Source: an uncultured delta proteobacterium
GTDB lineage: Bacteria > Desulfobacterota > Binatia > UBA9968
Reading direction: 5' to 3'
Length of the DNA stretch: 64,000 bases
Assembly: GCA_963727625.1 (NCBI GenBank)
Contig: CAVSHR010000002.1
Location: forward strand, 128,001 to 192,000
The notes beneath the pieces are model-generated. The model was not told the origin of the DNA. It made no database searches and saw only the letters and a list, made by a program, of their open reading frames with translations. This document shows positions 31,323-49,577 of the stretch, piece by piece. How positions within the stretch are numbered: the first letter of the stretch is position 1; each line of letters starts with the position of its first letter. The translations under genes and the position numbers were made by a program.

Positions 31323-31330
31323 GAACGGAA

Positions 31331-31402: not shown

Positions 31403-31417
31403 CGATGTCTTTGGTGT

Positions 31418-31978: not shown

Positions 31979-32156
31979 GGATTCCTCGGAAGAAATTTAG
32001 TTAACGCCGGGATTCCGCGTCAACATATATTGGCGACGCCGTGAATACAACTGACTTATTAACGGCTACCCAAAGAGATTTTCAAAGCGCCAGTATCATG
32101 CCGCAGTGCGCTGTGCTAAGAGATCGAAGCACAAAAGAACAAACGACATCCTGATC

Positions 32157-33017
32157 ATGAGCAGCGAGCTTTGGGCGATCATTTCGGCGGCGGCGTGGGC
32201 GGTGGATTCGATCCTCGTGCGCAAGGGCACGGCGTTTTCCAACCCTTCGACGGCGGCGTTCATCAGCTTCGTCGTCAACGTCACGATTCTGGTTCCCTAC
32301 GTTTTCTATCACTACCCCCTGGAAAAGATTTTTCAGCCGGCAAACTTGTTCTTCATCGTGACCGGTATCATCCAGCCGGCGATCGTGCGCGTGATGTTCT
32401 ACATCGGCATCGTTCGTCTCGGTGTCTCGCGTGCTGGACCGATCCGCGGCACCTCGCCTTTTTTTTCCGTGGCGATCGCTTTTTTTCTTTTTCATGACCG
32501 GCCGGGTTTGATCGTTTATCTGGGCGGAATCTTGACTGTGGCCGGCACCTGGCTGGTTTCTTACAAACGGGCGGGGGAGGCGAAATGGCGCCCGCTCGAT
32601 CTCTTATTTCCGTTGGGCGCGGCGATGCTCGCGTCGGTGTCGCAGAATATCCGCAAAATGGGGCTCAACAGCACCAATGAGCCGATCATTGCGGCGGCGA
32701 TCTCGACGGCAACGTCGCTGCTCTGCCTGCTTGGCTCGCTGGTATTTTCCAAAAAAAGCCGAGCGCTGCAGCTCAACCGGCAATGCCTGCCCTATTACGG
32801 CGGCGCGGCGGTGTGCGCGCTGGTCGGTCAATTGTCCACCTTCGTGGCGCTCAACGGCGGTCAAATCTCCGTCGTCGCGCCACTTAACAGTACTTCGCCA
32901 TTGTTCGTCATCGCTCTCACCGCGCTGTTTCTGCGCGGCGAGGAGAAGGTCAATACCGCTGTGGTGATCGGAGTGATCCTGCTCGTCGGGGGAATCGCGG
33001 CGATCACGGGGCGGTAG
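32157..33017 (+). CDS. DMT/EamA family transporter
   Basis: About 10 TM segments, two EamA-like halves, GVSRAGPI, SVVAPL. Confidence 0.85.
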   Translation: MSSELWAIISAAAWAVDSILVRKGTAFSNPSTAAFISFVVNVTILVPYVFYHYPLEKIFQPANLFFIVTGIIQPAIVRVMFYIGIVRLGVSRAGPIRGTSPFFSVAIAFFLFHDRPGLIVYLGGILTVAGTWLVSYKRAGEAKWRPLDLLFPLGAAMLASVSQNIRKMGLNSTNEPIIAAAISTATSLLCLLGSLVFSKKSRALQLNRQCLPYYGGAAVCALVGQLSTFVALNGGQISVVAPLNSTSPLFVIALTALFLRGEEKVNTAVVIGVILLVGGIAAITGR

Positions 33018-33021
33018 GGTT

Positions 33022-33128
33022 CCTAGGACGTTCAAAAGGTTCAAGCCGTTCAAATAGTTCAAATCGTTTGAACGGAGATCGCGAAGCGATTGGTTGAACG
33101 GAGCGCAGCGGTTGAACGTTTTGAACTC
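33022..33128 (-). repeat. ~100-bp GTTCAA/TTGAAC-rich dispersed element, copy B
   Basis: Inverted copy of 29955-30058; lies between convergent genes. Confidence 0.8.
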
Positions 33129-33143
33129 GGGATCAGATATCGA

Positions 33144-33572
33144 TCAGGCCGCCGGCTTGAACTTCGGCAGCGTGATGCCGTCGCCGCTGTCCTCGAAAAC
33201 GACTTCCACCGGCATGTCGATGCGGACTTTATCGATGGGGCAGCCGATCACATTGCTGCAAAAGCGCGGCCCGTCGTCGAGGTCGACCCAGGCCGTTACA
33301 TAGGGAATGTCCGGCGCGAAGCCGCGCAGCGCGGTGCCGACCACTTCTCGGATGATGGTGAAGCAAAAGATTTTGCCCTTGCCGCTCACCGGCACCCAGT
33401 CGAGTTTTTCGCTGGCGCAATCGCCGCACACCGGGCGCGGCGGGAACACCCAGGTGCTGCAGTTGCCGCACTTTTGCATCATCAGCTTGCCGGCCTTGGC
33501 GCCGTCCCAGAAGGGCTGATTGACGGGGGTGATTTCAGGGAGAGGTTTTTTGATTGATTTTTCTTCTGCCAT
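33144..33572 (-). CDS. Zn-ribbon/OB-fold DUF35 protein
   Basis: PFWDG, CGNC...PPRPVCGDC, PYVTAWVDL, MPVEVVF. Confidence 0.9.
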   Translation of the reverse strand: MAEEKSIKKPLPEITPVNQPFWDGAKAGKLMMQKCGNCSTWVFPPRPVCGDCASEKLDWVPVSGKGKIFCFTIIREVVGTALRGFAPDIPYVTAWVDLDDGPRFCSNVIGCPIDKVRIDMPVEVVFEDSGDGITLPKFKPAA

Positions 33573-33620
33573 ATTTTCTCGCCTTTCAGATGTTCAAGAG
33601 AATGAGTGTATAAGACTTTA

Positions 33621-33690
33621 TCTCGCCAAGACGCCAAGACGCTAAGTTCGAAGTCATTATACCTTGGCGCCTTTGCGTCTTTGCGTGAGA
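33621..33690. repeat. 8-nt-period palindromic repeat (CGCCAAGA / TCTTTGCG)
   Basis: tctcgccaagacgccaagacgctaag ... cttggcgcctttgcgtctttgcgtgaga. Confidence 0.75.
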
Positions 33691-33710
33691 TATGCCGAAA
33701 TTCCCTGCCG

Positions 33711-34904
33711 CTAAGCTTCGCTTCCCAAGATCGCCGCGGCGGTGCAGCCGAAGTTCTTGCCGTAGTTGACCGCGCCGACGCCGGTGGAAATGCCGAATTT
33801 GATGTTCGGCACCTGCCGTTCGCCGCATTCACCGCGAATCTGGCGCACGGTTTCGATGACATGCAGCATGCCGCCGGTGGTCGATGGTTGGCCGCAGTTG
33901 ATCATGCCGCCGCTGGTCTGGATCGGCAGGTCGCCTTTGAATGTGAAATCGGTCTTCTCGAAAAATGCCTTGTCATTTCTCCCGCAGAAGCCGAGATCCT
34001 CGATCTGGATCATCACGACGGGGATATAGTCGTCGTAAAGATTCAAGCAGCGGATATCCTTATGCGCGACGCTGGACATTTCAAAGGCGCGCTTGCCGGC
34101 TTGGGTTATTCCCGTGATCAGCGGGTTGGCGCGATAGCGCGGACCAAAGCTCGCGTTGTTACATTCGCCCCATCCGAGCAGATAGACCGGCGGCTTGCGC
34201 ATTGATTTGGCGCGCTCGGCCGACGTCATGATATAGGCTTTGCCGCCGTTGGCGGGCATGACGCAATCGAACAGGCGAATCGGATCGGAGATCATGCGCG
34301 ACTTTTTGTAGTCTTCGATGGTGATCGGCTTGCGAAGATACGCATTGGGATTGAGCGAGGCGTGATACCGGCCGGTGACGGCGATCTTGCCGAAGTGCTC
34401 GTCGGTCATGCCTGACTCGTGCATGTAGCGGCTCATCACGAAAGAAATCTTGCAATTGGGTCCCATGACGCCGAAAGGCATTTCATAGTCGCGGGTGTCG
34501 GCGTGGGCGCCGCGGTGACCGCCGCGTTCGCTGAATGGCGCGGCTGCGGCGATGACCAGCACGAGGTCGCAAAGTCCCGCAGTAATCGCGGCGGCCGCGT
34601 GGCCGAGCAGCGACACCGAGCTGGCGCCGCCATTGCCGCCGGCGAGTGAAACTCCCGGCGTGATGCCGAGAATCGCCGCCACTTCCTCGGGCCAGAAGGG
34701 TTGTGAATGATTGGTCGTATAAATCGCCGCGAGTCCCTGGCCGTCGAAGTCCTTCTTGCTCAAACCCGCGTCTGCCATCGCCAGCCGCGCCGCCCAGGCG
34801 AGATATTCCGCCGTCGATTTTCGCGCCTCGCCCGGCTTGCTGCCGAGCCGATCGGTCGGCGTCTCACCGATGCCGACGACCGCAGTTTTTCCTCGTATGC
34901 TCAT
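33711..34904 (-). CDS. Thiolase-family protein (SCP2/Ltp2-like)
   Basis: AVVGIGET, HASLNPNA, PIRLFDC, NLYDDY, TSGGMI; followed by DUF35. Confidence 0.85.
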   Translation of the reverse strand: MSIRGKTAVVGIGETPTDRLGSKPGEARKSTAEYLAWAARLAMADAGLSKKDFDGQGLAAIYTTNHSQPFWPEEVAAILGITPGVSLAGGNGGASSVSLLGHAAAAITAGLCDLVLVIAAAAPFSERGGHRGAHADTRDYEMPFGVMGPNCKISFVMSRYMHESGMTDEHFGKIAVTGRYHASLNPNAYLRKPITIEDYKKSRMISDPIRLFDCVMPANGGKAYIMTSAERAKSMRKPPVYLLGWGECNNASFGPRYRANPLITGITQAGKRAFEMSSVAHKDIRCLNLYDDYIPVVMIQIEDLGFCGRNDKAFFEKTDFTFKGDLPIQTSGGMINCGQPSTTGGMLHVIETVRQIRGECGERQVPNIKFGISTGVGAVNYGKNFGCTAAAILGSEA

Positions 34905-34935
34905 ATTTGAGATCCTCTCTCTACAACGATGCGTA

Positions 34936-35081
34936 AATTCGAATTTCGAATATCGAAATCCGAAAAATAAAACAAAATGCCAAATTCTAAAAACGAAGTC
35001 CGCCGATTTCGTTTGGAACTTGAGGATTGTGTTTCTGCTCAATTGATATTGTTTCGAGCTTCGGATTTCGAGTTTCGAATT
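34936..35081. repeat. 7-nt-period palindromic repeat (TTTCGAA-type)
   Basis: aattcgaatttcgaatatcgaaatccgaa ... ttcggatttcgagtttcgaatt. Confidence 0.75.
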
Positions 35082-35235
35082 GTCCTCCATCGAGAGATAT
35101 TTCAGCCCAGCCGGACTGTCAAGCGATCGATGCACGATACATTCCGATTGACAGCGCGTAGGCCGAGGTGGGATAACCGCGGCACACAACAGACCGGCTG
35201 ACGCTGTTTAGGCTGGCAACATAGACTGATTATCC

Positions 35236-35274
35236 AAGGGCCCTAACGGTCTCATTCCGTTGGGCCCTTTTTTT
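35236..35274 (+). terminator. Rho-independent terminator
   Basis: AAGGGCCCTAACGG-tctcatt-CCGTTGGGCCCTT followed by T-run. Confidence 0.8.
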
Positions 35275-35668
35275 GTCGATGTCGATGATCATCGCGCCGA
35301 GCAAAAAGGGATGAATCAATATGGAGACATCCTGTATCAATTCCACTCCCTGCCACTTGTGCGACCTCATTTGTCGGATCTCGTGAGTCACGGAATGCTC
35401 AGCATATTCACCGCTATTGTCAGGAGAAGAACAGACCTGGCTGATGGCACTGTTCGTGCTTCCTTGGTTATGGATGCCCTATTCTGAATTGACCTCAAAT
35501 CGTCTGTTGGTCGTTCGGCAAGAAGTTGATTGAAGAACAGGCGGCCGAGTGTACGCGGGTGGGTGATCTCAACCAGCAAAGCAGAATCCCCGAGACAATC
35601 CACGGCATACAAATTGGCAAGAGCGTACGAAGTCAATCGAAGAGGCGCGAGAGGGGAAGCAGTCCAGA

Positions 35669-36667
35669 ATGAATTCAATTGCTAGATTAGTATTTTTCGG
35701 GCTACCGACAATTGCCTTCCTGACTGTTCTTTCTACCGCCGAGGCGCAGCAGCCGAACAAAGTCCCGCGGATAGGGTATCTATCTTCGTTCGATCCAGCT
35801 AGTAACTTCGCTCGTCCCGAGGCCATTCGGCTGGCTCTGCGCGAGCTTGACTACATAGTAGGACAGAACATCGTCTTTGAGTACCGATACGCGGAGGGAA
35901 AGCTCGATCGTTACCCTGAGCTTGCGGCCGAGCTGGTGCGTCTCAAGGTCGATATCATCGTGGTAGCAGGAGGGGCCAGGACGGTCCGGGCGGCCAAGAA
36001 TGCGACCAAGACGATTCCCATCGTTATGGTGGGCCAAGGCGTCGATCCTGTCGAGGCCGGCCTAGTTGACAGCCTTGCCCGTCCGGGCGGCAACGTCACC
36101 GGCCTTACAAACCTTGGCCCAGAACTAGGCGGTAAGCGGCTGGAGCTGCTCAAAGAAGCCGTTCCTAAACTTGCCCGTGTCGCGGTTCTCTATGCTCCGG
36201 CCAGTCGTAGCAGTGCACGCACTATGAGGGCTCTGCCAATCGCGGCGCGTGCGCTGAAGTTGACTCTTCAACCTTGGGAGATACGAGCTGCGGACGGTTT
36301 CGAGAAGGTATTCGCTACGCTAAACAAGCAGCGCCCGGAGGGACTCTACGTACTCGGGGCCTCGCTAATAAATGCTAACATAAAACGGACCGTCGGCTTT
36401 GCGTTAAAGAGTCGGCTACCGTCGATGTACCACGCCAGAGAAGGTGTAGTTGCCGGCGGGCTCATGTACTACGGGGCGGACTTCGCGGACAACTACCAAC
36501 GCGTCGCATATTATGTGGACAAGATCCTCAGGGGAGCCAAGCCCGCCGATTTGCCGGTCGAGCAACCGACAAAATTCGAGCTGATCATCAATCTGAAAAC
36601 CGCCCAACAGATCGGTCTGACGATCCCGCCCAACCTGCTGGCGAGAGCGGACAAGGTGATCAAATGA
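35669..36667 (+). CDS. ABC transporter substrate-binding protein (PF04392/TrpX-like), paralogue 1
   Basis: AQQP..PRIG, AAELVRLKVDII, SLARPGGNVTG, KRLELLKE, YVDKILRGAKPADLPVEQPTKFEL. Confidence 0.9.
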   Translation: MNSIARLVFFGLPTIAFLTVLSTAEAQQPNKVPRIGYLSSFDPASNFARPEAIRLALRELDYIVGQNIVFEYRYAEGKLDRYPELAAELVRLKVDIIVVAGGARTVRAAKNATKTIPIVMVGQGVDPVEAGLVDSLARPGGNVTGLTNLGPELGGKRLELLKEAVPKLARVAVLYAPASRSSARTMRALPIAARALKLTLQPWEIRAADGFEKVFATLNKQRPEGLYVLGASLINANIKRTVGFALKSRLPSMYHAREGVVAGGLMYYGADFADNYQRVAYYVDKILRGAKPADLPVEQPTKFELIINLKTAQQIGLTIPPNLLARADKVIK

Positions 36668-36714
36668 AACAGTTTTGGATTTTCAATTGCCGATTTTGGA
36701 TTAGGGAAAAATAC

Positions 36715-37788
36715 ATGAAAAAACTATTGCGGATTCGATTGTGCTGTTCTCAATCCGACAATCCAAAACCTGTGGTGAGCAGGGTCGAACCATCGGCAAT
36801 CCAAAATCGAAAATGGGTGGGGATCTTCGCTATCGCCCTCACATTCGCCTTGGGTGGGGCGGTGGCCCCGGCGCAGCAGCCGGCGAAAATTCACCGGATA
36901 GGAATTCTGAGCCCGTCCTCCGGGTCCGTCTTCCCGGCCCGGGTCGAAGCATTTCGCCAACGGCTGCGCCATCTTGGCTATGTCGAAGGAAAGAACATCG
37001 CCTTCGAGTACCGATATGCGGAAGGGAAACGCGGACGGCTGCCTGGCCTTGTCGCCGAACTGGTCCGTCTTAAAGTTGATGTTATCGTCACCGTGGGGAC
37101 GCCGGGAGCCGAAGCTGCCAAGAAGGCGAGCGGGACAATTCCGATCGTATTCGCCGGTGCTTCCGATCCAGTAGGAACTGGGATTGTCTCCAGCCTGGCA
37201 CGACCAGGCGCGAATATCACCGGACTTAGCCTCATGGTACCGGATCTAGATGGCAAACGATTGGAACTGCTCAAGGAAGCCTTTCCCAAGGTTGCCCGGG
37301 TGGCCTTCCTCTGGCAACCGGGTGGCGCGGGGGGAAACCTGCGTCTCACAGATATGGAGGCCGCGGCCAAGGCGTTGGAACTCAAACTTCTATCGCTGGA
37401 GGTGCGAAGTCTTGACGATTTTGAGGGCGCATTCGCACGAGCGAAAGGGGAAGGCGCCCAGGCGCTCATTACGACCACAGGTGATCTTATCAATACTCAA
37501 CAACGTCAAGTCTTGGACTTCGCGGCAAAGAACCGGCTGCCGGCGATGTACCACTACAGTGAGTTTGTTGAGACCGGTGGCTTGATGAGCTACGGGCCAG
37601 ACAATAAGGACATATGGCGGCGCGCCGCTGACTTTGTCGATAAGATCCTCAAGGGCACCAAACCGGGTGACTTGCCAGTGCAGCAGGCGACAAAGTTCGA
37701 GCTGGTAATCAATCTCAAGACTGCGAAACAGATCGATCTGACGATCCCGCAGAGTCTGTTGGCGCGGGCGGATAGGGTGATCAAATGA
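36715..37788 (+). CDS. ABC substrate-binding protein (PF04392-like), paralogue 2
   Basis: Same motifs; N-terminus extended through AATCCAA-type repeats, start uncertain. Confidence 0.85.
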   Translation: MKKLLRIRLCCSQSDNPKPVVSRVEPSAIQNRKWVGIFAIALTFALGGAVAPAQQPAKIHRIGILSPSSGSVFPARVEAFRQRLRHLGYVEGKNIAFEYRYAEGKRGRLPGLVAELVRLKVDVIVTVGTPGAEAAKKASGTIPIVFAGASDPVGTGIVSSLARPGANITGLSLMVPDLDGKRLELLKEAFPKVARVAFLWQPGGAGGNLRLTDMEAAAKALELKLLSLEVRSLDDFEGAFARAKGEGAQALITTTGDLINTQQRQVLDFAAKNRLPAMYHYSEFVETGGLMSYGPDNKDIWRRAADFVDKILKGTKPGDLPVQQATKFELVINLKTAKQIDLTIPQSLLARADRVIK

Positions 37789-37829
37789 ATCTTCGATTAT
37801 CGACCGGTAAAGTTAATGAGGTACAAAGC

Positions 37830-38805
37830 ATGACCACAAAAATTCTTGTCTTCCTGTTTGCTTCTGCAATTCTGCTGTCCCATGAACCAAGCCAAGCCCA
37901 ACAGCCGAAGCAAATCCAGCGCGTCGGTTTGTTCCATGTGGGCTTGGACCACGTTCCGCCGTCGTTTCCTGCTCTCCGCGCAGCGCTCAAAGAACTAGGC
38001 TACGAGGAGGGGAAAAATATCCATCTGGATTGGCGCAACTTGCCGGATGACGAAGCGGCCCTTGCCACCGCTAGAGAATTTGCCCGCCAACCCGTCGATC
38101 TGATCGTCGCCTTTGAGGACCAAACGATTCGCGCCGCCAAGGCGGCCACTACTGAGGTTCCAGTCTTGTTTCTCCACGCGAATGCTCCTGTGAAGGATGG
38201 CTTTGTGAAAAGTTTTGCCCACCCTGGCGGTAATATGACCGGCTTCGCTGCCTGGCCCGTGTCTAATGGCAAGCAGGTCGAGCTGTTCAAAGAGTTGATT
38301 CCCGATCTCGGGAGTCTGCTCTTGCTGGTCCATCCCGATGATCCTGTCGGGCGACGCTGGCTGCAGGAAGTGCGGCAAGCCGGTAAAGCGCTGAAACTTC
38401 GTTTGATCGAGCGCAAAGCAACCAATCAAGAGGAAATCGAACGGGCCATCGGTTCGGTAAGGCGAGAAGAAGTGGGTGGAATCCTGGTGCTGTCTCTGAT
38501 CCTCCGCAACAGTTACAGTTCACTTATCACCCGTCTCGCCGCAGACAAGCATCTCCCCTTGGGGATGCACCGTAAAGAATGGGTCGAAGCAGGGCGCGCT
38601 TTTTTCTTATTCGGCGGACCTTGCGTCCGTGGGCCGAGCCGCCGCTCCTTATGTGGATAAAATTCTCAAAGGCACCAAGCCGGCGGACCTTCCGGTCGAA
38701 CAGGTGTCGAGGTTTGAGCTGGTGATCAATCTGCAGTCAGCCCGGAAACTTGGTTTGACGATTCCACAGTCGATTCTGTTTCGGGCAAGCAGGGTGATCA
38801 AATGA
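37830..38805 (+). pseudogene. ABC substrate-binding protein paralogue 3, frameshifted near 38592
   Basis: Removing one G from GCAGGGCGC restores ALFSYSADL...YVDKILKG...RASRVIK*. Confidence 0.8.
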
Positions 38806-39037
38806 AGAAAGGCAACGGCAATTAGAACAACGCAGTCAATCCTCGGCTCGCTCTTTGGGCGATCCTCTTTGCGCTTTGTTTTGCGGCAGAAACGCAGCCT
38901 AAGACAGCCCCACGACGGCTATCCCGGTAGAGCAGCCGACCAAATTCGACTTCATCGTCAATCTGAAAGCCGCCAAGCAGATCGGCCTGACGATCCCGCC
39001 GGGTGTGCTGGTGCGGGCGGACAGAGTAATCCGCTAG
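38802..39037 (+). pseudogene. Internally deleted SBP: signal-peptide region joined to the conserved 3' tail
   Basis: LALWAILFALCFAAETQP then PVEQPTKFDFIVNLKAAKQIGLTIPPGVLVRADRVIR* in another frame. Confidence 0.8.
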
Positions 39038-39060
39038 GCGTGAATGGTGAGGCGTGAGCC

Positions 39061-40090
39061 ATGAGAGGAGATTCAATGCGCGTAGTCCATAGTCTGTGGT
39101 CAGTGGTCAGCAAAATTGTCGTTTGCATTGCTCCTGGCACCGTGCTTTTTGCGCTTTGCTTTTCTGCCGCCGCGCAGCAGCCGGCGAAAATCCCACGGAT
39201 AGGATTTCTAGGTGCCACTACCGCTTCAGTCGAATCTACTCGCATCGAGGCTTTCCGGCAGGGCATGCGCGAGCTTGGATACGTGGAGGGGAAAAGCATT
39301 GTCATTGAGTGGCGGTGGGCCGAGGGAAAATTCGATCGGCTGCCCGAGCTTGCGGCCGAACTCGTGCGTCTCAAGGTGGAGGTCATCGTCACAGGGGGCT
39401 CGACATCAAGCGGCGCTGCGAAGAAAGTAACAACCACGGTTCCCATTGTGATGGCGCAAGATAACGATCCTGTGGGCAGTGGGTTTGTCGCTAGCCTTGG
39501 GCGTCCGGGCGGGAACATGACAGGATTGGCAACCCTTGCTCCGGAGATAAGCGGAAAACAACTGGAGCTTCTCAAAGGAGATCGTTCCCAAGCTCTCCCG
39601 CGTGGCCGTCCTCGGGACTTCGACCGCCCCGGGCAACGCAGAAGCGTTAAAAGAGACGGAACTTTCCGCAAGGGCGTTCAAGATACAGCTTCAATACCTA
39701 GACATACGAGTTCCCAAAGATATTGAGACTGCATTCCGAGAGGCAAAGAAGGGACGTGCTGACGCAGTCCTCGTGCTCGGAGCCCCGGCCCTCATTTCTC
39801 AGCGAAAACAGATTGCAGACCTCGCGGCAACGAGCCGGCTCCCGGCGATCTATCCGTGGCCGGAATTTGTCAAAGACCTCGGGCCTATGAGTTATGGCGT
39901 GAGAGTTACCGACTTGTACCGACGCGCCGCCACTTATGTCGACAAGATCCTCAGAGGCGCTAAGCCTGCCGACCTTCCCGTCGAGCAGCCCAAGAAGTTC
40001 GAATTAGTGATCAATCTGAAGACGGCGAAGCAGATCGGATTAACAATACCACCCAACGTATTGGCTAGAGCAGATAAAGTCATCCGATGA
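39061..40090 (+). pseudogene. ABC substrate-binding protein paralogue 4, frameshifted near 39575
   Basis: CTCAAAGGAGATC has one extra A relative to LLKEIVP; two ORF halves 39061-39726 and 39602-40090. Confidence 0.85.
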
Positions 40091-40133
40091 CCGAACAATC
40101 TAAAATCCAAAATCGGAAATCTAAAATCGAAAG

Positions 40134-40178
40134 GTTCCGCCGAATGTGCTGGCGAGAGCGGATCGGGTGATTCGATAG
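40134..40178 (+). repeat. Isolated SBP 3' tail fragment
   Basis: Encodes PPNVLARADRVIR* right after AATCCAA-type repeats. Confidence 0.8.
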
Positions 40179-40219
40179 GCGTGAGCCTTGAGGCGGAAGG
40201 CGTGAGGAGGAAGTCCGGA

Positions 40220-41209
40220 ATGAATTCGATTACTGGAAATATACTTTTCTGGTCGCTCACCATGATCTTTCTGCCAACTATTTCCGCCAAAGCGCAGCAG
40301 CCCGTGAACGTTCCACGGGTCGGATACCTAAGTAGTGACTCCCCTTCCACTATCGCTGTCCGTATCGAAGCATTCCGGCAGGGTCTGCGCGAGCTTGGAT
40401 AGGTGGAGGGGAAAAACATTGTTATTGAGTGGCGATTTGCCGAGGGTAAAGCTGATCGGCTACGTGGCCTTGCGGCTGAACTGGTCCGTCTCAAGGTAGA
40501 CGTCATCGTTACGAGTGGACCGGCAGCAACCCGTGCCGCCAAGCAAGCAACTGTTACAATTTCCATTGTCACGGCGCAGGATAACGATCCTGTTGGGAAC
40601 GGGCTCATCGCCAGCCTTGCGCGACCTGGTGGAAACATTACTGGATTGTCCACCCTTGCCCCGGAAATAAGCGGGAAAAGGCTGGAACTATTGAAGGAGA
40701 TCGTTCCAGGGATCTCCCGGGTGGCCGTTCTCGGCAGTTCGACCACCCCGGGCAACCCACATGCGTTAAGAGAGACGGAACTTGCCGCACGAGTGTTGGG
40801 GCTGCAGATTCAATACCTAGAAGTACGCGGTGCCAAGGATCTTGAGCCTGCATTTCGAGCTGCAGCCAAAGACCGTGCTGACGCCGTCCTCTTGCTGCAA
40901 AGCCCAGTCTTCGTTAATGAGCGAAGACAACTTGCAAACCTCGCGGTAAAGAGCCGGCTGCCGGCGATATACGACAGGCGAGAATTTGTAGACGATGGTG
41001 GCCTTATGTGCTACGGGACAAATTTCGTCGACTTGTCCCGCCGCGCCGCCACCTACGTCGATAAAATTCTAAGAGGCGCCAAGCCCGCCGATCTCCCAAT
41101 CGAACAACCGACCAAGTTCGAGTTTGTGATCAATCTCAGGGCGGCGAAGCAGATCGGTTTGACGATTCCGCCGAATGTGCTGGCGCGGGCGGATCGGGTG
41201 ATCAAATGA
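40220..41209 (+). pseudogene. ABC substrate-binding protein paralogue 5 with in-frame TAG at 40400
   Basis: LRELG*VEGKN where paralogues have LG-Y-VEG (TAC to TAG). Confidence 0.85.
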
Positions 41210-41286
41210 CAGTACTGAGTAACGAGTGCTGAGGACTGAGGTCAGGTGGAGAAAAACTCAGAACTCGTAGCTCAGCGCTCAGCACT
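41210..41286. repeat. 7-nt-period palindromic repeat (CTGAGTG / CTCAGCA)
   Basis: agtactgagtaacgagtgctgaggactgag ... ctcagaactcgtagctcagcgctcagcact. Confidence 0.75.
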
Positions 41287-41301
41287 TTGGGGGGAGGGGC
41301 G

Positions 41302-42282
41302 ATGAGAAAAAAGTTTCTATGGTTTTCACTAATCGCTGTGCTTGGCGGGGTGGCAATTGCCCAGGCGCAGCAGCCAACGAGAGTCTCCCGGATAGGATTA
41401 TTAGCTGCTGTTAGCCCGGCCGCTTTGTCGGGCCGCGCCGAGGCGTTGCGCCAGGGTCTACGCGCTTTTGGGTATGTGGAAGGGAAAAACATTGTCATTG
41501 AATCTCGATATGCAGAGGAAAAACTCGAACGTCTCCCGGCGCTCGCAACCGAGCTGAGACGTCTCAATGTAAACATCATCGTGACGGCTGGTGCGCCAGC
41601 GACTCGTGCTGCCAACGAAGCAGGTAATCGAATCCCCATCGTCATGGCGCAGGATAACGATCCTGTTGGAAACGGGTTTGTCGAAAGCCTCGCACGACCC
41701 GGCGGCAATATCACGGGATTGTCCACACTTTCCTCCGAGCTGAGCGGAAAACGACTGGAGCTTCTCAAGGAGGTTGTTTCTAAGGTTTCCCGTGTGGCCG
41801 TGCTTGGCAATTCGGCAGTTCCGGGCAACGCGCTGGTATTAAAAGAGATAGAAATTGCAGCAGAGTCGTTCGGGGTCCAGATTCAATCCCTAGAAATAAA
41901 AGCGCCGGCAGATATTGAAACCGCATTCCGAGACGCGCGTAAGGGGCGGGCTGGCGCAGTCCTAGTACTGAACAACCCCGTCGTGTCCGCTCAGAGGAGG
42001 CGAGCTGCTGACCTTGCGGTAAAGAACCGCCTCCCGGCGATATACGAAAGATTAGAATATGTAAAAGATGGGGGGCTTATGAGTTACGGAGTAAGCAGTA
42101 CCGACTTGTTCCGTCGTGCCGCCACTTACGTGGACAAGATTCTCAAAGGCGCAAAGCCCGCGGACTTACCGGTCGAGCAGCCAACGAAATTCGAGTTCGT
42201 CATCAACCTAAAAGCCGCCAAACAGATCGGCCTGACGATTCCGCCCAACGTTCTGGCGCGGGCGGATCGGGTGATTCGGTGA
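41302..42282 (+). CDS. ABC substrate-binding protein (PF04392-like), paralogue 6
   Basis: Intact ORF with signal peptide and all shared motifs. Confidence 0.9.
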   Translation: MRKKFLWFSLIAVLGGVAIAQAQQPTRVSRIGLLAAVSPAALSGRAEALRQGLRAFGYVEGKNIVIESRYAEEKLERLPALATELRRLNVNIIVTAGAPATRAANEAGNRIPIVMAQDNDPVGNGFVESLARPGGNITGLSTLSSELSGKRLELLKEVVSKVSRVAVLGNSAVPGNALVLKEIEIAAESFGVQIQSLEIKAPADIETAFRDARKGRAGAVLVLNNPVVSAQRRRAADLAVKNRLPAIYERLEYVKDGGLMSYGVSSTDLFRRAATYVDKILKGAKPADLPVEQPTKFEFVINLKAAKQIGLTIPPNVLARADRVIR

Positions 42283-42287
42283 CGGGA

Positions 42288-42632
42288 TTAACGCCCAAAA
42301 ACAATATCGATACCTGAGAGGATCAAATCGAGTTGGCGTTTGGACAGCTTGCCGACCTCTTCGGTGAGCAATGCACGGTCTAGGGTAATCAGCTGCGAGG
42401 TGTTTACGACTGAATCCTTTGGCAAACCTGTCGCTCTGGCAGACAGCAATACATTGCCCGGCGCTTCGGCCCAACGAAGATTGCTGGTTAGAGGTACGCA
42501 AACAACGGTTCTAATAAGGCTGCGATTAAGAGCGTCCCCTTGGACGACTAACACCGGCCGCCGAAAGCCGGGACCCGAACCGGTCGGTTCAGGTAGGTTC
42601 GCCCAATACACATGGCCTTGGGCGATTACCAT
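42288..42632 (-). CDS. Type II TA toxin, PemK/MazF family
   Basis: GHVYWANLPEPTGSGPGFRRPVLVVQ, VPLTSN, TGLPKDSV. Confidence 0.9.
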   Translation of the reverse strand: MVIAQGHVYWANLPEPTGSGPGFRRPVLVVQGDALNRSLIRTVVCVPLTSNLRWAEAPGNVLLSARATGLPKDSVVNTSQLITLDRALLTEEVGKLSKRQLDLILSGIDIVFGR

Positions 42633-42862
42633 TCGACATCTTCAAGTGTGCGTACCGCGGCGGCGGAAATGGCTGGGTCGGGGTAGTCAACCATCGCCTC
42701 GCAGACCCTATTCATCGCCTCAGTCACGGCATCTGGATCGTGACGAGCGACGTATTCGGTCACGGCTTCTGCATAAATCTGGCTTCGGGATTTTTTCAGT
42801 CGACGGGATAACCGCTCGGCATCTCGGAAAATCTTATCGGGGATGGAGATCGCAGTTTTCAT
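42626..42862 (-). CDS. Antitoxin (RHH, MazE/ChpI-like)
   Basis: MKTAISIPD...SRSQIYAEA; overlaps toxin start. Confidence 0.85.
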   Translation of the reverse strand: MKTAISIPDKIFRDAERLSRRLKKSRSQIYAEAVTEYVARHDPDAVTEAMNRVCEAMVDYPDPAISAAAVRTLEDVEW

Positions 42863-42920
42863 ACCCGCAGTATAACCAGCGGGACGACTGCGTGCAAATT
42901 CGCGTGCCTCCTCGTGAGTT

Positions 42921-43034
42921 CCGGTGCAGGGGGTCGATAAGGTCGATCTTGTCATCAATCTACAGGCGGCGAAGCAGATCGGCCTGACGATTCCCCCGAA
43001 TGTGTTGTCAAGGGCAGACAAGGTGATTAGGTGA
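42921..43034 (+). repeat. Isolated SBP 3' tail fragment after the MazF-type module
   Basis: Encodes PVQGVDKVDLVINLQAAKQIGLTIPPNVLSRADKVIR* with no start. Confidence 0.85.
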
Positions 43035-43095
43035 GGGGTAAGTGAGTTAGGCGTTAGGCAAAAATTCAGGCGAGGCTAAAACAGGAGGGAACATC

Positions 43096-44091
43096 ATGCA
43101 TTCAAAATCTATTTCTTGGTTACTGGCAATTATCTTGCTGATGACTGCCGCCCTCGCCGAAGCTCAGCTCACCAAGTTGACCATCGGCAACAATACGCTT
43201 AGCACCAACGGTCTGCCTGCATGGATGGCCAAAGAAGCCGGGATTTTTAACAGAAATGGCCTCGACGTGCAGATCGTCTATTTCAGGGGCGGAACGATTA
43301 CGACCATGGCTTTGATCGCCCGCGAGACGCCGATCAGTCAAGTTTCCGGACCGCCGATCGTGAGCGCCGCTCTCAAGGGAGCCGACGCGGTCATGGTTGC
43401 CGCCGGCAACGTGGTTTCGGAGTACTGGCTCATGAGCAAGCCCGAGCTCAAGACCGCCGCGCAACTGAAGGGCGGCTCGGTCGCCATCGCGACGTTCGGC
43501 GGCTTGTCCGATTCCATCTCTCGGATCGCGTTACAAAAGCTCGGATTGAACGCTACGAAGGATGTCACACTCGTGCAGATCGGCACGATTCCGGAGCGCC
43601 TGAGCGCACTGGAGTCGGGCAAGGTTCAGGCCGCCATGCTCAACGCGCCCGACAACTTCCGGGCGCAGAAAAGAGGGCTGCATAAACTGATGGACGTGCG
43701 GCTCACCTATCAGGGCATAGGCGTGGGCACGACCCGGACCGTCATCAGAGAAAATCCCGACCTTGTCCGGCGCTATGTGAAATCTCAGATCGAGGCAGTC
43801 CACCGGCTCAAAACGGACCGGGAGGCGGGTATCAAAGTGCTGGCAAAATATCTCAACATTCAGGATCGAGAGGTTCTGGAAAAAGCCTATGATGACGCGA
43901 TCACCGACGAGAAACTTCCGCCGAAACAGTATCCGACCCTGGAGGGGATCAAGAAGATTCTCGAACCATTGGCGGAGACGGATCCAAAGGCGAAAGCAGC
44001 AAAGCCTGAGGACTTTGTCGATACGCGCTTCATCAAGGAGCTCGATGACAGCGGTTTCATCGACGAGCTCTACAAGGGCAGGAAGCGTTGA
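43096..44091 (+). CDS. ABC substrate-binding protein, NitT/TauT (SsuA-like) family
   Basis: WMAKEAGIF..NGLDV, LKGGSVAI, FVDTRFIKEL; RBS GGAGG. Confidence 0.85.
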   Translation: MHSKSISWLLAIILLMTAALAEAQLTKLTIGNNTLSTNGLPAWMAKEAGIFNRNGLDVQIVYFRGGTITTMALIARETPISQVSGPPIVSAALKGADAVMVAAGNVVSEYWLMSKPELKTAAQLKGGSVAIATFGGLSDSISRIALQKLGLNATKDVTLVQIGTIPERLSALESGKVQAAMLNAPDNFRAQKRGLHKLMDVRLTYQGIGVGTTRTVIRENPDLVRRYVKSQIEAVHRLKTDREAGIKVLAKYLNIQDREVLEKAYDDAITDEKLPPKQYPTLEGIKKILEPLAETDPKAKAAKPEDFVDTRFIKELDDSGFIDELYKGRKR

Positions 44092-44138
44092 CGCGCTGCG
44101 GATTTTGAGACTCGCGATTTTGGATTGAGAGAAAATCC

Positions 44139-44426
44139 ATGAATAAAAACTTTTGGTTTCGAGCCCTGAATTCTTTGTTCGATAATCCAAAATCCAAAAT
44201 CCAGAAGCGGCCTCGCGGACTAAAATGGGTCAGGCTTTCGATGTTCGCTCGCGTCCTCGTGTTGGCTGGGGCTGTGGCACAGTCGCAACAGCCGAAGAAA
44301 ATTCCACGGACAGGGTATCCGTTGATTGATCCAACGAATGAATCTGCACTTGCCGAGGGCATTCGGCGGGCTTTCAACGAGCTTGGCTACGTTGGCGCGT
44401 CGCATCTGAATCTTGATCATCTCTAA
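44139..44426 (+). pseudogene. 5' fragment of a PF04392-like SBP gene
   Basis: Leader homologous to 36715 gene; AQSQQPKKIPRTG...ELGYVG then stop. Confidence 0.75.
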
Positions 44427-44589
44427 GTGCCAAGCTTGCGGAGGTAGATTTCATCGTTGACGCCATGATCCACCTGAAGTAGAAGTCAGCTCAACCGCCT
44501 GGGGGAGCCTGTTACCGCGGTGTAAGGCGAACCTGTCATACGTAAACCCTCTCCCCCCGATCCGCATATCCGTTTCAGTCTCTTGTTTT

Positions 44590-47500
44590 ATGGCAAGCAC
44601 GACCAAAAAGGGCTCAAAGAACACCAAGACAAAGCCGCGCCGTGCCGTGGTGAAAACGTCGGCGGTTACACAAACGCGGCTGATTGCCGAGCTTCGCCAG
44701 CAACTCGCCCAGTCTTTGCAGCGAGAGAACGCGACTGCCAGGGAATTGCAAGACCGTAAGCGCGAACTTAACGACGTTTTAGCGCAGCAAAGTGCGACGA
44801 GTGAAATCTTAGGCGTGATCGCCAGCTCACCGAGGGATATCCAACCCGTAATGGATGCGATTGCCGAAAGCGCCGTGCGGCTGTGCGAGGCCAACGATGC
44901 GCTGATTTTCCGGGTAGAAGGCGATTCCTTGATACGCTTCGCTAATTTTGGCTCGCGCTCCCAGCAGAGCTTGGCGGCGGTCCGCTGGGAGGGATCAACC
45001 AGAGCTCAATACCCGGTCGAGCAGTGATCGGTCGAGAGATAATTCACATTCATGACCTGGCAGCGGTCCCAGAGGCCGAATTACGAGCGGTGTTTGCCAG
45101 ACGCGTTGGTGTGCGAACGGCGCTTGCAACGCCGCTGTTGCGAGACGGTGTCCCGATTGGGGTGATACTGATTCGCCGTACTGAAGTTCGACCCTTCAGT
45201 GAAAAGCAAATAGCGCTTCTCAAAACCTTCGCTGACCAAGCCGTTATTGCCATCGAGAACGTGCGCTTGTTCAAGGAACTCGGCGAGCGCAACGCGGAGT
45301 TGCGCGAGGCGCTGGAGCATCAGACGGCGACGGCCGAGGTGCTCGGCATCATCAGCCGCTCGCCGACGGACGTGCAGCCGGTGCTCGATGCCATTGTCGA
45401 GAGCGCGGCAAAAGTTTGCGGCATTGATGACGTGGTGCTGCGGCTCCACGAAGCCAACGCCATGGTGGTGCGGGCGCATTTTGGTTCGGTACCGGTAGCG
45501 GCTGGTCGCGAAGCGATCAGCATTGATGAACTACAGAATCAGTGGGTGCGCGAGCATGGGACACTCCACATCCCGGATATCCGTGCGCAGAGGATAGATT
45601 TCCCAACGATGGGTTCCATCTCGCGTACCTTTTTAATCGTTCCTCTCCGTCAGCAGGACCAACTCATAGGATTACTGGGTGCGCGCCGCACCGAGGTGCG
45701 CCCCTTCACCCCGGCGCAGATCAAGCTGATGGAAACCTTTGCCGACCAGGCGGTCATCGCCATCGAAAACGTACGGCTATTTCAAGAACTCACCGAGGCG
45801 TTGGAGCAGCAGACGGCGACGAGCGAAATTCTAGGCGTGATCGCCAGTTCGCCGACGGATATCCAACCGGTCCTCGATGCAGTCGCAGCGAGCGCGGCCC
45901 GGTTATGCGATGCCAAAGACGCTGTAATCTTTCGCCTCGATGACAACCATCTTCACCGCGTAGCAATTTGTGGAGAGATTCCGATGAGAGAGACGCCGCT
46001 GGCGCTCACCAGGGGCTCTGTGACTGGTCGCGCCGTGGTCGACCGCCGGGCGGTTCATATCCACGACGCCGATGCCGAATCCGAAACCGATTACCCAGAT
46101 ATCGATAGGACGGGAAATCGAGGCGGAAGTCGTTCCAGGACGAGACTGGCCGTACCACTGCTGCGCGAGGGTGTTGCCCTTGGGGCGATCATCGTTCGAC
46201 GTATGGAGGTTCGTCCATTCACAGAAAAGCAGATCAAACTGCTTGAAACCTTCGCCGACCAAGCTGTAATCGCCATAGAGAACGTCCGGCTGTTCAAAGA
46301 ATTGCAGGAGCGCAACGCGGAATTGCGCGAGGCGCTGGAGCATCAGACGGCAACTTCCGAGGTGCTCGGCATCATCAGCCGCTCGCCGACGGACGTGCAG
46401 CCGGTGCTCGACGCCATCGTCGAGAGCGCCGCGCGGGTTTGTGGGATCGATGACGTGGTGCTGCGGCTCCAAGACGGCAACGCTATGGTTTCACGGGCTC
46501 ATTTCGGTCCTTTAACCGTCAACCGCGTCGAGATCAGCATCAATGAGCCACAGTTTGGTTGGATGCGGGAGCATGGCACGCTTCACATTCCTGACGCCAG
46601 CGACCAGTCCGATTCACGGATGGTGGTTACCGGCGGCTGGCGGACTTTCCTGGTCGTTCCCCTTCGTCAGCAAACGGAACTGATTGGAGGATTGTTCGCA
46701 CGTCGTACCGAAGTTCGTCCCTTCACCCCGGCGCAGATCAAGCTGCTTGAAACATTCGCCGACCAAGCGGTCATCGCCATCGAGAACGTTCGGCTGTTCA
46801 ACGAGCTAAAGGAATCGTTAGAGCAGCAGACGGCGACGAGTGAAATCCTGGGCGTCATCGCCAGCTCGCCGACGGATATTCAGCCGGTGCTGGATGCCGT
46901 GGCGGAAAGCGCTGCGAAATTATGTAATGCTCCGAGCGCTTTCATTCAGCGCGTCGACGGTAACGTTATGCGACGAGTGGCGGCTTATCCCTATCCAGCA
47001 CCTCTTATAGGAGAAGAAACAGTTATAGATCGTACCAGGATTTCGGGCCGGGCTATTATTGACAGACAAACAATCCACGTCCAAGACATGGCCGCAGATA
47101 CGCAAAGCGAATTTCCCGGCGGCAGAAACATCCAACCAGTGACCGGTACACGCTCTGCTCTGGCAACGCCGCTGCTGCGAGAGGGAGTAGCCATCGGAGT
47201 TATTTTCGTGCGCCGAACAGAGGTCCGTCCCTTCACTGAAAAGCAGATCAAACTGCTGGAAACCTTCGCCGCCCAAGCCGTCATCGCGATCGAGAACGTG
47301 CGGCTATTCCAAGAGCTGAAAGAATCATTAGAACAGCAGACAGCGACGAGTGAGATCTTGGGTGTTATCGCAAGCTCTCCGACCGACATTCAACCTGTGT
47401 TGAATGTAGTCACCCAGAACGCAGCGCGCCTATGTGACTCGAGCGACGCGCAGCTTCGGCTGATTGACGGAAACCTCCTTCGTCTATTGGCCTCATATGG

Positions 47501-49577
47501 TCCGCTTCCAGTACCTGAGATAATACCCATTAGCCGCCAAACAGTGTCCGGCCGAGCTGTCACGGATCGACAAATGATCCATGTTCATGACCTGGAGCCG
47601 GAGCGCGAGACTGAGTATCCGGAAGGAGCAAGGGATGGGTCTCGAACAATCCTTGGCATGCCGTTAATGCGCGAGGGTGTTCCCATTGGAGCTGTTCTCA
47701 TTCGCCGACTTGAGGTCCGTCCTTTTACTGACAAGCAAATCGCACTCCTCACGACTTTCGCAGACCAAGCTGTCATCGCTATAGAGAACGTGCGGCTGTT
47801 TCAGGAGCTCACCGAAGCGCTGGAACAACAAACGGCGACGAGTGAAATCTTGGGCGTGATTGCCAGTTCGCCGACGAATATCCAGCCGGTGCTGGACACT
47901 GTGGCAGCCAACGCCGCGCGACTATGTGAGGCCGTTGACGCACAGATTCGCCTGGTAGAGGGTGACGGAACGCGGTTGGTGGCTTCCTTCGGAACCCTTC
48001 CAGCACCAGAGTTTCGGTCTTTGAAACCCACAAGTGTTTCTGGTCGGGCAGTTCTTAACAGAGAGAGTGTCCATGTTCACGATCTCCGTGAAGCCATGAG
48101 AACGGAATTTCCCGAAAGCGTCGTGGGTGCTCGCGTGGGAGCGGTGACGATGCTAAGTACACCGATGCTCCGGGAGGGAATTCCGATCGGTGTCATCAAT
48201 GTAAGACGAACCGAGCTTCGTCCCTACTCGGACAAACAAATCAAACTGCTCGAAACCTTTGCCGATCAGGCCGTGATCGCCATCGAGAACGTGCGGCTGT
48301 TCAACGAATTAAATGAGCGCACCAACGAATTGACTCGCTCGGTCGGCGAGCTCAAAGCCCTCGGCGAAGTCAGTCAAGCGGTCAGCTCGACTCTCGATCT
48401 CGAAACTGTCCTCACCCGCATCGTCTCCCACGCCGTTCAACTGAGCGGCACCGATGGTGGCGCGATTTACGAGTACGATGAACCTTCGGAAGAGTTTCAC
48501 CTGCGCGCCACCGATCACATGGAAGAGGAACTCATCACTGCCCTGCGCAATAATCCACCTCGCCTGGGCGACGGCATAGTCGGCCGGGCGGCGGCCAGCC
48601 GTGAACCGGTCGTGGTTCCCAATATCCTAGAAGAGCGCGCCTACGCCCCACGCATGCGCCAGATGCTGGAGCGCTTCGGTTTTCGTGCCAGCCTGGCAGT
48701 CCCCCTATTACGCGAAGACCGCATCATCGGCGGCTTGGTGGTACGGCGAAAAGCGATGGGTGAGTTTCGTCCCGAAGTCATCGAGCTATTGAAAACCTTC
48801 GCCAACCAGTCGGTGTTAGCGATCCAAAACGCCCGGCTGTTTCGCGAGATCGAGGAAAAGAGCCAGCAGATCGAAGCCGCCAACCGGCACAAGTCGGAGT
48901 TCTTGGCCAACATGTCCCATGAGCTTAGAACCCCGCTCAATGCCATTATCGGCTTCTCGGAGGTCTTGCAGGAAAAACTCTTCGGCGAGCTCAATGAAAA
49001 GCAAGCCGAATATACCGACGACATCCTCAGCTCCGGCCGCCATCTACTCTCACTCATCAATGAGATTCTCGATCTCTCCAAGGTCGAAGCCGGGCGCATG
49101 GAACTGGAGCTGGCGACCTTCGATCTCCCGATCGCCATCGACAACGCCCGCACCTTTGTGCGCGAGCGCGCCGCCACGCACGGCATCACGCTCGACGTCA
49201 CAATAGACGACCGCCTCGGTGACATCATTGGCGACGAGCGTAAGATCAAGCAGATCCTTCTCAACCTGCTATCCAACGCGGTCAAGTTCACCCCGGAGGC
49301 AGGCCGGATCGAGATCGCAGCAAGGCAGAGCGACGGCTCGGTGGAAATATCCGTCAGTGACACCGGCATCGGCATCGCGGCAGAGGACCAACCAAAAGTC
49401 TTCGAAGAGTTTCGCCAGGTGGGCTCCGACTATGCGCACAAGGTCGAGGGAACGGGACTGGGGTTGACGCTGGCCAAAAAATTCGTCGAGCTGCATGGGG
49501 GAAGGATCTGGGTGGAGAGCGAGGTGGTGAAAGGCTCGACGTTTGTTTTTACACTACCGATTGCGGCTGTCGCATAG
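44590..49577 (+). CDS. Multi-GAF (8 GAF) sensor histidine kinase, frameshift near 44960-45000
   Basis: Seven repeats of QTATSEILGVIASSP...FADQAVIAIENVRLF plus an eighth GAF; H-box FLANMSHELRTPLN; NAVKFT, DTGIG, GTGLGL; first GAF split across two frames. Confidence 0.9.

Follow-up and report, generated by a model that had tools for sequence, protein, structure and literature searches.

The subject of this study is a head-to-tail array of genes for PF04392-type (ABC_sub_bind) substrate-binding proteins at positions 35669–44426 of a 64,000-nucleotide (nt) stretch of DNA (the window) from an uncultured delta proteobacterium (GTDB lineage Bacteria; Desulfobacterota; Binatia; UBA9968; NCBI GenBank assembly GCA_963727625.1, contig CAVSHR010000002.1, positions 128,001–192,000 of the forward strand). 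The array holds six full-length paralogues (U1–U6), gene remnants (relics A–C and a 5′ stub) and inserted genes of other kinds, and its binding-protein genes end in a conserved 3′ coding block, here called the tail. It is probably (at a rough probability of 0.6) the product of a lineage-specific expansion of orphan PF04392 binding-protein genes with a gene-conversion hotspot centred on the tail and no dedicated DNA site.

Related arrays were collected in one profile scan of genome contigs, which gave 79 loci (935 kb; identified by L numbers below), the window's own genome not being among these. All 79 come from metagenome assemblies, and many are short contigs; their labels are Binatia, Syntrophobacteraceae and ‘delta proteobacterium’, along with several further phyla that are implausible. 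A six-frame hidden Markov model (HMM) scan found 354 units in them, all but three oriented like the match. The 354 comprise 236 open and 46 broken full-length units, 22 tail-only, 12 head-only (seven of these nearly full length), two internal and 36 cut by the end of the locus. The arrays run head to tail; L065 is the longest, with 17 units packed into 21 kb, and L055 has 13 open units. The copies in the window are 65–75% identical in nucleotides to each other and 76–87% identical to genes on other contigs; for U1 the nearest relatives lie in other genomes (81–87%, against 65% inside the window). Of the 391 open reading frames (ORFs) of at least 180 amino acids (aa) in the arrays or within 2.5 kb of them, 117 were scanned by domain search, and neither an integrase nor a BPD_transp_2 permease was present among these. 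The earlier note on this DNA, made from the sequence alone, had remarked on the lack of a permease or ATPase in the array; this was borne out, as no BPD_transp_2 match occurs among window ORFs of at least 150 aa and the sole ABC ATPase among the 51 window ORFs scanned lies at 1–882, about 35 kb from the array. Many tandem paralogues, no membrane partners and nearest relatives outside the array were thus found together, as in other orphan expansions. The missing permease and ATPase neighbours bear on operon context, not on PF04392 membership.

The evidence for recombination at the tail comes from synonymous sites (pS is the uncorrected Nei–Gojobori proportion throughout). In 74 close cross-genome pairs with gene bodies 82–99% identical in nucleotides, pS rose from 0.27 in the body to 0.56 over the last 40 codons; it was higher in the tail in 72 of the 74 pairs (Wilcoxon p = 9e-14), with a step about 60 codons from the end. 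When pairs were picked on codons 25–150 only (39 pairs), pS was 0.44–0.61 in the last 60 codons against 0.22–0.36 upstream, and the unselected C-terminal part of the body stayed at 0.24–0.36. The excess was retained after overlapping or duplicate loci had been dropped (65 of 67 pairs) and was present in all seven pairs involving U1 or U2 (body pS 0.22–0.29, tail pS 0.49–0.72). When change points were sought in the identity of codons at identical residues, 27 of the 67 pairs gave a significant one; the lower identity was always on the 3′ side (27/27), and 13 of these change points fell 40–59 codons and 23 fell 20–99 codons before the stop. In the clearest case (L003_8374 against L007_1702) the two genes are 97–100% identical until approximately 270 nt before the stop and approximately 76% identical after that, and then become unrelated. 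Seven of 11 examined pairs were same-locus paralogues that are 80–100% identical (most windows 87–100%) over the last ∼150 nt, ∼40–70% identical upstream and at the random level just past the stop. Third-position identity of at least 0.75 in the tail was found in nine of 414 within-locus paralogue pairs and in five of 3910 between-genome pairs (odds ratio 17, p = 8e-7), whereas body third-position identity was alike in the two groups (0.361 and 0.365).

A rearrangement breakpoint in the same region was found by comparison with the orthologous locus L004, the left flank of which matches window positions 28102–35275 at 74–86% nucleotide identity, including the thiolase-like gene that adjoins the array. 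The order in L004 is an extra binding-protein gene, an orthologue of U1 (83%), an orthologue of U2 (87%, L004_12199) and then different genes. The U1–U2 junction is collinear with L004; identity between U2 and L004_12199 falls from ∼92 to ∼76% about 150 nt short of the stop, beyond which there is no alignment. Collinearity therefore ends in the tail of U2. Only one of 54 close pairs has an orthologous downstream neighbour, so that array order and content differ between genomes, as had been proposed. U3 sits exactly where the collinearity with L004 stops.

Recombination at the tail accounts for the doubled pS, the clustered change points, the near-identical tracts and the breakpoint in U2. The tail itself is conserved as protein only, and this across the whole family. 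Among the six copies in the window, the final 50 codons combine the lowest pN of the gene (0.10–0.14) with its highest pS (0.73–0.80). Eight aligned tails have 14, 25 and 2 invariant columns of 39 at codon positions 1, 2 and 3, respectively, with a mean pairwise identity of 0.48 at third and 0.86 at second positions; after the stop codon none of 23 columns is invariant and identity is 0.25. A consensus of 106 homologues ends with the same tail, and a 29%-identical solved structure from Vibrio still has LVINKTAAEQLGITIPEAVLARA there. U1, U2 and U6 match PF04392 with 153.7–188.8 bits (cut-off 25.9), and the pieces of U3–U5 match it too. An AlphaFold2 model of U6 (pLDDT 89.3, pTM 0.82) predicts a two-lobed periplasmic-binding-protein fold like that of solved PF04392 members, the Foldseek matches being 3LKV (TM scores 0.82/0.89), 3LFT (L-Trp complex; 0.81/0.88) and 6HNI (0.80/0.88). 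In this model the tail is well ordered (pLDDT 93–97) and consists of a loop, a strand (residues 297–302), two short helices and a terminal strand. 

Neither a dedicated recombinase nor a special site takes part on this reading. The ssDNA folds of the eight tails on both strands (16 folds) had z scores of −1.32 to +0.86 against shuffles and shared no common structure, Rfam gave no match at E ≤ 1 in 35000–45200, and no integrase or recombinase was present among the 51 window ORFs, with no Phage_integrase match there or in the 117 array-adjacent ORFs. The proposal of the earlier note that the tail is a recombination or homing site of integron-like cassettes is thus not sustained, and the synonymous-site conservation for which it had suggested a test is absent: synonymous sites are saturated. 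Its suspicion that units recombine at the tail is supported, though through sequence homology and not through a dedicated site. Of the three observations that it had set against its own proposal (collinear arrays, random breakpoints and conservation at the amino-acid level only), just the last was made, as the breakpoints cluster and the arrays are not collinear.

The features of the array are given below. Unit coordinates were taken from the ORF list, Pfam, a repeat finder and the six-frame HMM scan, and refer to the 64-kb window only.
35669–36667, + strand: U1, open PF04392 paralogue, 332 aa (Pfam E = 8e-45; HMM positions 11–327)
36664–37788, + strand: U2, open PF04392 paralogue with an N-terminal extension, likely start 36715 (Pfam E = 1.7e-55)
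36668–36817, + strand: heptamer leader of U2, with repeats of GATTTTG type ahead of the start codon and complementary repeats of AATCCAA type behind it (inverted repeats I1, I4, I5)
37785–38805, + strand: U3, divergent paralogue in two frames, with the shift near 38590–38605 beside a T6 run
38806–39037, + strand: relic A, a decayed signal-peptide/‘RIG’ head and the last 39 tail codons, PVEQPTKF...RVIR*
39038–39060, + strand: GGCGTGA-type leader before U4, with a parallel copy at 40179–40210 before U5 (repeat family D14)
39061–40090, + strand: U4, paralogue whose frame shifts by +1 near 39572 through an extra A (HMM positions 4–157 and 156–327)
40092–40178, + strand: relic B, AATCNAA heptamers (relic of an N-terminal extension) and a 44-nt tail with stop
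40181–41209, + strand: U5, paralogue with an in-frame TAG at 40400–40402 (Pfam E = 2.9e-45 for 40403–41209)
41287–42282, + strand: U6, open PF04392 paralogue, 331 aa (Pfam E = 1.1e-50; PDB 3lkv E = 5.7e-32)
42288–42632, − strand: MazF/PemK-type toxin gene (PemK_toxin E = 1e-24), its stop 5 nt past the U6 stop
42626–42862, − strand: presumed antitoxin, 78 aa from an ATG at 42862, the ORF overlapping the toxin gene by 7 nt
42918–43034, + strand: relic C, tail-only, 38 codons and a stop, behind the toxin–antitoxin pair (HMM positions 290–327, E = 3.3e-14)
43096–44091, + strand: NMT1-type binding protein of a different family inside the array (NMT1_2 E = 1.5e-15)
44139–44426, + strand: PF04392 5′ stub with an N-terminal-extension leader (HMM positions 7–63, E = 7.9e-6)

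This inventory agrees in most respects with the one made from the sequence alone: the six full-length paralogues, three open (U1, U2, U6) and three broken (U3, U4, U5), all nine listed tail ends (recovered from the ORF list, the repeat finder and the sequence), the 5′ stub and the MazF-type module between tails were all found again. Three points had to be amended, the third being the nature of the breaks, treated further below. There are two internal deletions instead of one, as relic B is a head-plus-tail deletion relic like relic A, and heads therefore equal tails in the window (nine and nine). The SLARPGGN block, which had been called variable, is conserved (pN 0.22–0.25 in codons 121–160); the variable stretches across the window copies are codons 1–60 and 161–260 (pN 0.41–0.50). 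The two HMM matches of U3 are at 37830–38597 (positions 1–259) and 38587–38802 (positions 256–327). The tail of relic A (HMM positions 289–327, E = 2.5e-19) lies 116 nt from the end of U3. The tail of U4 uses A/T-richer synonymous codons and is 68% identical to that of relic B. U3 is far more divergent than the other paralogues (153 bits against 420–580 in the HMM scan), and it has no close relative among the 79 loci, which were picked with an alignment that did not contain U3.

Unit boundaries in the DNA are marked by heptamer repeats and not by tails. Repeats with a 7-nt period start right after the binding-protein stop and run to the next ribosome-binding site, the runs in the window being 36668–36817, 39038–39060, 40092–40134, 40179–40210, 41210–41300, 43035–43070 and 44104–44201. 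Over the 45 nt past 318 unit stops the autocorrelation was 0.433 at lag 7 (0.40 at lag 14) against ∼0.26 at other lags, and 7 was the best lag in 198 of the 318 units; for 388 other ORFs the lag-7 value was 0.281, the clear cases being mostly other binding-protein genes. The heptamers are of several types (GGATTTT, AGGCAAC, GGCGTGA, GGTCAGA, GGAGCAA and GGACTGA). Within the window the AATCCAAAATC-type heptamer is confined to the array (nine matches, 1.7 expected), and it occurs in 41 of the 79 loci. Inverted pairs lie around the start codon of U2 (36674–36702 with 36786–36814) and of the stub (44104–44126 with 44172–44201), the leader of which is 75% identical to that of U2 (repeat family D15). 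Here repeats of GATTTTGG type ahead of the start are paired with others of AATCCAAAATC type in the N-terminal coding extension (...DNPKSKIQNRKW...), with the ribosome-binding site and AUG between the two arms, and the same leader is found in many related loci. The RNA fold of the U2 leader has −39.7 kcal/mol (z = −1.9), and the stub leader has z = −1.8. Cyanobacterial STRR repeats are likewise runs of 7-nt direct repeats upstream of start codons. The TAACTGA repeats of Beggiatoaceae, cyanobacteria and Bacteroidetes, as treated in the passages of PMC4679880 drawn on here, are the closest described counterpart that was found and resemble the present leaders in being short runs of 7-nt direct repeats upstream of start codons; the present ones differ in that many different heptamers occur, with sequences other than TAACTGA, that they start right after the previous stop and are tied to binding-protein genes, and that one heptamer type forms an inverted pair around the start codon. 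The leaders are candidates for a so far uncharacterised element that controls genes for periplasmic proteins in these lineages.

Tail relics were surveyed across the 79 loci with short motifs. The tail motif recovered 208 of 230 open units, gave no match in reversed sequence and identified 29 orphan tails (four cut by the start of the locus); the head motif recovered 166 of the 230 and identified 14 orphan heads, against ten in the reversed-sequence null. Recognisable tail-only relics therefore outnumber head-only ones. A composite like relic B, in which a U4-type gene ending ...ATCCGATGA is followed by an AATCNAA heptamer run and a 44-nt tail with stop (a mini-tail), was found at eight further places in seven loci (L043, L058, L065, L076, L020, L022 twice and L035). 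The possibility that the mini-tail is a small ORF was rejected on account of in-frame stops just upstream (window, L043, L022, L058 and L065). In ten mini-tails 12 of 13 third-position columns vary, against five of 13 at first and four of 13 at second positions, and all ten have kept the stop. In one case, relic L037_7148, the sequence is 90% identical to that of a working neighbour (L037_4337) over 150 nt, as expected if relic tails are overwritten by conversion.

These observations may be brought together as follows. The array evolves by gene birth, divergence, deletion and insertion. The tail is a C-terminal strand–helix–helix module which protein selection keeps constant family-wide; the last ∼50 codons are as a result the part most alike between paralogues, and homologous recombination would concentrate there. 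Tails would be overwritten by gene conversion, leaving mosaic junctions and rearrangement breakpoints ∼50 codons before the stop. The agent is presumably ordinary homologous conversion of the RecA type, and unequal crossovers within tails could add and remove units. Overwriting from working copies may also keep the tail relics of deleted genes recognisable, and coding-like in their variation, while other parts decay.

Several results weigh against this account. The six tails in the window are not homogenised, as their pS shows, and no relic in the window has a near-identical donor there. Third-position identity was 60% for the upstream tail relative to the downstream body and 64% for the body's own tail; the upstream tail is thus no better conserved than the gene's own, simple crossovers at the start of the tail do not explain everything, and the idea that a tail travels with the downstream gene was dropped. 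The best same-locus matches of the ten mini-tails (31–37 of 42 nt) are no better than their best matches anywhere, which does not directly support preservation of relics by conversion and led to the rejection of local gene conversion as the source of the mini-tails. Of the two motifs, that of the head is the shorter and the noisier, which makes the asymmetry between tail and head relics in part a matter of detection. The pairs are not independent (the 67 pairs come from 44 genes), and because the relatives are all metagenome contigs, several of them assigned to implausible phyla, some mosaic junctions could be chimeras.

A partial alternative that remains live, although it appears unlikely as an explanation of the relics, is that they are kept as a working upstream region (promoter, ribosome-loading site or RNA element) of the next gene, which implies that gene deletions are tolerated only when the last ∼40–120 nt are spared. 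Almost every relic does have a same-strand gene within 12–190 nt downstream, and the window, L043 and L012 share a combination of mini-tail, GGCGTGA heptamers and U5-type gene although its partners on the upstream side are different. The end of the tail, ...AAGGTGATCAAATGA, holds a Shine–Dalgarno-like GGTGATC, which presumably matches the 3′ end of 16S rRNA, together with an ATG overlapping the stop. Such a stop-overlapping start codon is present at 139 of 200 gene junctions, but the downstream gene is in the overlapping frame at only 80 of the 200 (frames 61:59:80, not significant; the frame is open in 50), and stop–start (ATGA/GTGA) translational coupling was accordingly rejected as the cause of tail persistence. 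U5 moreover carries its own GGAGG site and ATG, and the mini-tails vary in a coding-like way (mainly at third positions, with the stops kept) that is unexpected for a promoter. Sigma-70-like promoters are not enriched in the array (three found, 4.4 expected), and neither sigma-70 promoters nor terminators in tails exceeded shuffles; sigma-54 motifs in tails, inspected by eye only, were inconsistent.

It is improbable that plain birth-and-death with random deletions suffices, the tail having no role in recombination and being merely the part of a dead gene that is easiest to recognise. The equal numbers of heads and tails in the window, the derivation of relics A and B by internal deletion and the weak head matches just upstream of several tail-only relics (L038, L045 and L008), which likewise make the asymmetry partly one of detection, would all agree with it. 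So would the one gene split by a simple IS insertion: in L010 a DDE transposase (DDE_Tnp_1, E = 8e-34; 14968–17130), the only mobile-element gene found in the arrays, separates HMM positions 7–148 from 147–327 of a binding-protein gene. It leaves unexplained, however, a doubling of pS that is limited to the last 40–60 codons, the clustering of change points and the sharply bounded near-identical tail tracts between neighbours. The simpler statement that heads equal tails and the tail therefore has no special standing holds for the window but not across the loci, with their 29 orphan tails and 14 orphan heads. A search for decayed full-length genes in the gaps before tail relics gave weak extra matches in only six of 24 gaps.

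A more far-reaching version of tail-centred conversion, which is doubtful, would have tail and heptamer leaders act as exchangeable modules, tail-anchored recombination being selected to reshuffle, expand and prune a repertoire of ligand receptors, and relics serving as landing pads for foreign genes (toxin–antitoxin pairs and other binding-protein families). If true, this would be a RecA-driven counterpart of integrons, possibly serving the sensor kinases in and beside the arrays.

Very unlikely is an assembly artefact in which the conserved tail misjoins paralogues or strains and so creates false mosaics and non-collinearity. The make-up of the collection of loci, short metagenome contigs in many cases, invites this explanation, as does the labelling of L003 and L007, which are 92% identical over the body, as Syntrophobacteraceae and Acidobacteria. 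The tail excess was nonetheless equal in pairs from contigs of at least 85 kb (14 of 14; 85 kb to 1.3 Mb, the window's contig of 821,574 nt included) and from smaller contigs (25 of 25); paralogue tails are ∼74% identical on average, which is below the exact k-mer repeats that mislead assemblers, and near-identical tail tracts within one contig cannot be created by De Bruijn assembly. Near-identical array genes were also seen on contigs binned as Acidobacteria, Verrucomicrobiia, Actinomycetota, Chloroflexota and the archaeal Nitrosocosmicus, which suggests frequent mis-binning of repeat-rich array contigs.

Frameshifts, too, are concentrated in one assembly class. Full-length copies are broken in 38 of 119 cases in assemblies with ‘MFD’ isolate names and in eight of 163 cases in the others (Fisher p = 1.6e-9), and the rate in the window (three of six) resembles that of the ‘MFD’ class. 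Breaks are six times commoner in this class. Two of the three disruptions in the window (the frameshifts of U3 and U4) are single-base indels in or beside homopolymer runs and may thus be assembly errors, and many apparent pseudogenes of such arrays probably reflect indel errors as well; support from reads should be sought before frameshifted copies in some assemblies are classed as pseudogenes.

An integron-like or homing system, in which the tail DNA is an attC-like site for an enzyme that inserts, excises and reorders cassettes, would account for the co-orientation of all units, for unrelated cargo between the tail of a full gene and a tail relic (toxin–antitoxin pairs in the window, L012, L003 and L071; a TENA gene in L021), for the more frequent recognition of tail-only than of head-only relics and for the start of two unrelated MazF-type modules (window and L012) just 5–6 nt past a binding-protein stop codon, but it is largely refuted already and extremely unlikely, given that no recombinase is encoded by the window ORFs, that the array ORFs scanned hold only the DDE transposase that splits a gene mid-body, that no tail folds better than shuffles, that synonymous sites are saturated with similarity stopping at the stop codon, and that relic start points are scattered over HMM positions 62–313 instead of sharing one core.

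Tail-centred conversion in an expanding orphan family may be compared with known systems. The Bug/TctC (tripartite tricarboxylate transporter) orphan expansions of Bordetella, Cupriavidus and Rhodoplanes reach 434 genes and arrays of up to nine in Rhodoplanes; array members can be <50% identical in protein sequence, their nearest relatives lie outside the array, and shared transporters or a sensing role have been proposed for the orphans (PMC5994714, in the passages used here). The present arrays resemble these in having many divergent tandem binding-protein genes, without adjacent membrane components and with nearest relatives elsewhere. They differ in family (PF04392, not TctC PF03401), in lineage (contigs labelled Binatia, Syntrophobacteraceae and ‘delta proteobacterium’), in array length (up to 17) and in their tail-centred recombination, tail relics and heptamer leaders, none of which is reported in those passages of PMC5994714. 

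With integron cassette arrays they share one-directional short units, a recurring 3′ element, toxin–antitoxin genes and genome-variable content; there is here neither an IntI-type integrase nor an attC-like folding inverted repeat, and no DNA conservation independent of coding that would indicate a nucleotide-level site. What recurs is the 3′ coding part of the gene itself, and every unit brings a start codon, a ribosome-binding site and a putative signal peptide of its own. In the pilE/pilS, vls and msp2 cassette systems segmental gene conversion takes place between copies and conserved flanks anchor the exchange. The arrays are similar in that a conserved sequence would act as homologous anchor between copies with differing central parts. 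Unlike those systems they have no single expression site with silent promoterless donors, the full units each having a start codon, a ribosome-binding site and a putative signal sequence and the relics being few and short; only the 3′ block shows the signal, and the exchanged piece is the conserved part and not the variable one. A narrow literature search (titles and abstract openings) found no publication on PF04392 arrays or tail-centred conversion.

Large families of orphan binding proteins are recognised but poorly understood in some soil and host-associated bacteria, and the present case extends the phenomenon to a second protein family and to a new lineage, in arrays of as many as 17 genes. 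A testable account of array turnover is offered as well, in which a protein-constrained C-terminal block doubles as a homology patch for conversion and rearrangement. As tail and body have different histories, trees, orthology calls and dN/dS estimates should treat the two separately.

All copies have a hydrophobic N-terminal helix (residues 3–20 of the U6 model, low pLDDT) followed by A-x-A-QQP. The PF04392-type family is very large: at least 8000 scored candidates were all significant, and many homologues are near 70% identity. Aromatic amino acids (L-Trp, L-Tyr or L-Phe) are the ligands of the three solved members (PMC10443332, Table 1). The operon context of a classical ABC importer was not found, no BPD_transp_2 being present among the 51 window ORFs or the 117 array-adjacent ORFs, and the proteins may instead feed a shared transporter or sensor kinases encoded elsewhere. 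Signalling genes recur in and beside the arrays, as in L006, L008, L040, L043, L036, L055 and L048; in the window a histidine kinase with eight GAF domains lies at 45024–49577 (with 44590–45027). Among the ORFs scanned in and near related arrays, four loci have GAF or dCache histidine kinases, three have sigma-54 response regulators and two have response-regulator cyclases. This recurrence of kinases and regulators makes a sensing role as plausible as transport and hints at orphan binding proteins that feed sensors.

The toxin gene and its small upstream partner together have the make-up of a MazEF-like toxin–antitoxin module. The presumed antitoxin matched no Pfam family at E ≤ 0.01, and a promoter-like TTTGCA-18-TATACT lies at 42898–42869. 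The pair is 71.5% identical in nucleotides to that of L071, which likewise lies 3′ of a binding-protein gene. In L076 a homologous toxin–antitoxin element is situated between two binding-protein genes.

Binding proteins of the NMT1/THI5 type recur in and beside PF04392 arrays. Three occur in the window (43096–44091, 49741–50721 and 50915–51934), the first of which is 77.5% identical in nucleotides to L016 5698–6662, likewise within an array; 16 such ORFs were found in ten related loci, some of them followed by the same heptamer repeats. TIR and SIR2 domain types are often found in defence systems. Elsewhere in the window two adjoining TIR-domain ORFs were found at 16360–17685 and 17922–18428, one of them fused to an FGE-sulfatase domain, and a SIR2-family ORF at 26104–26856.

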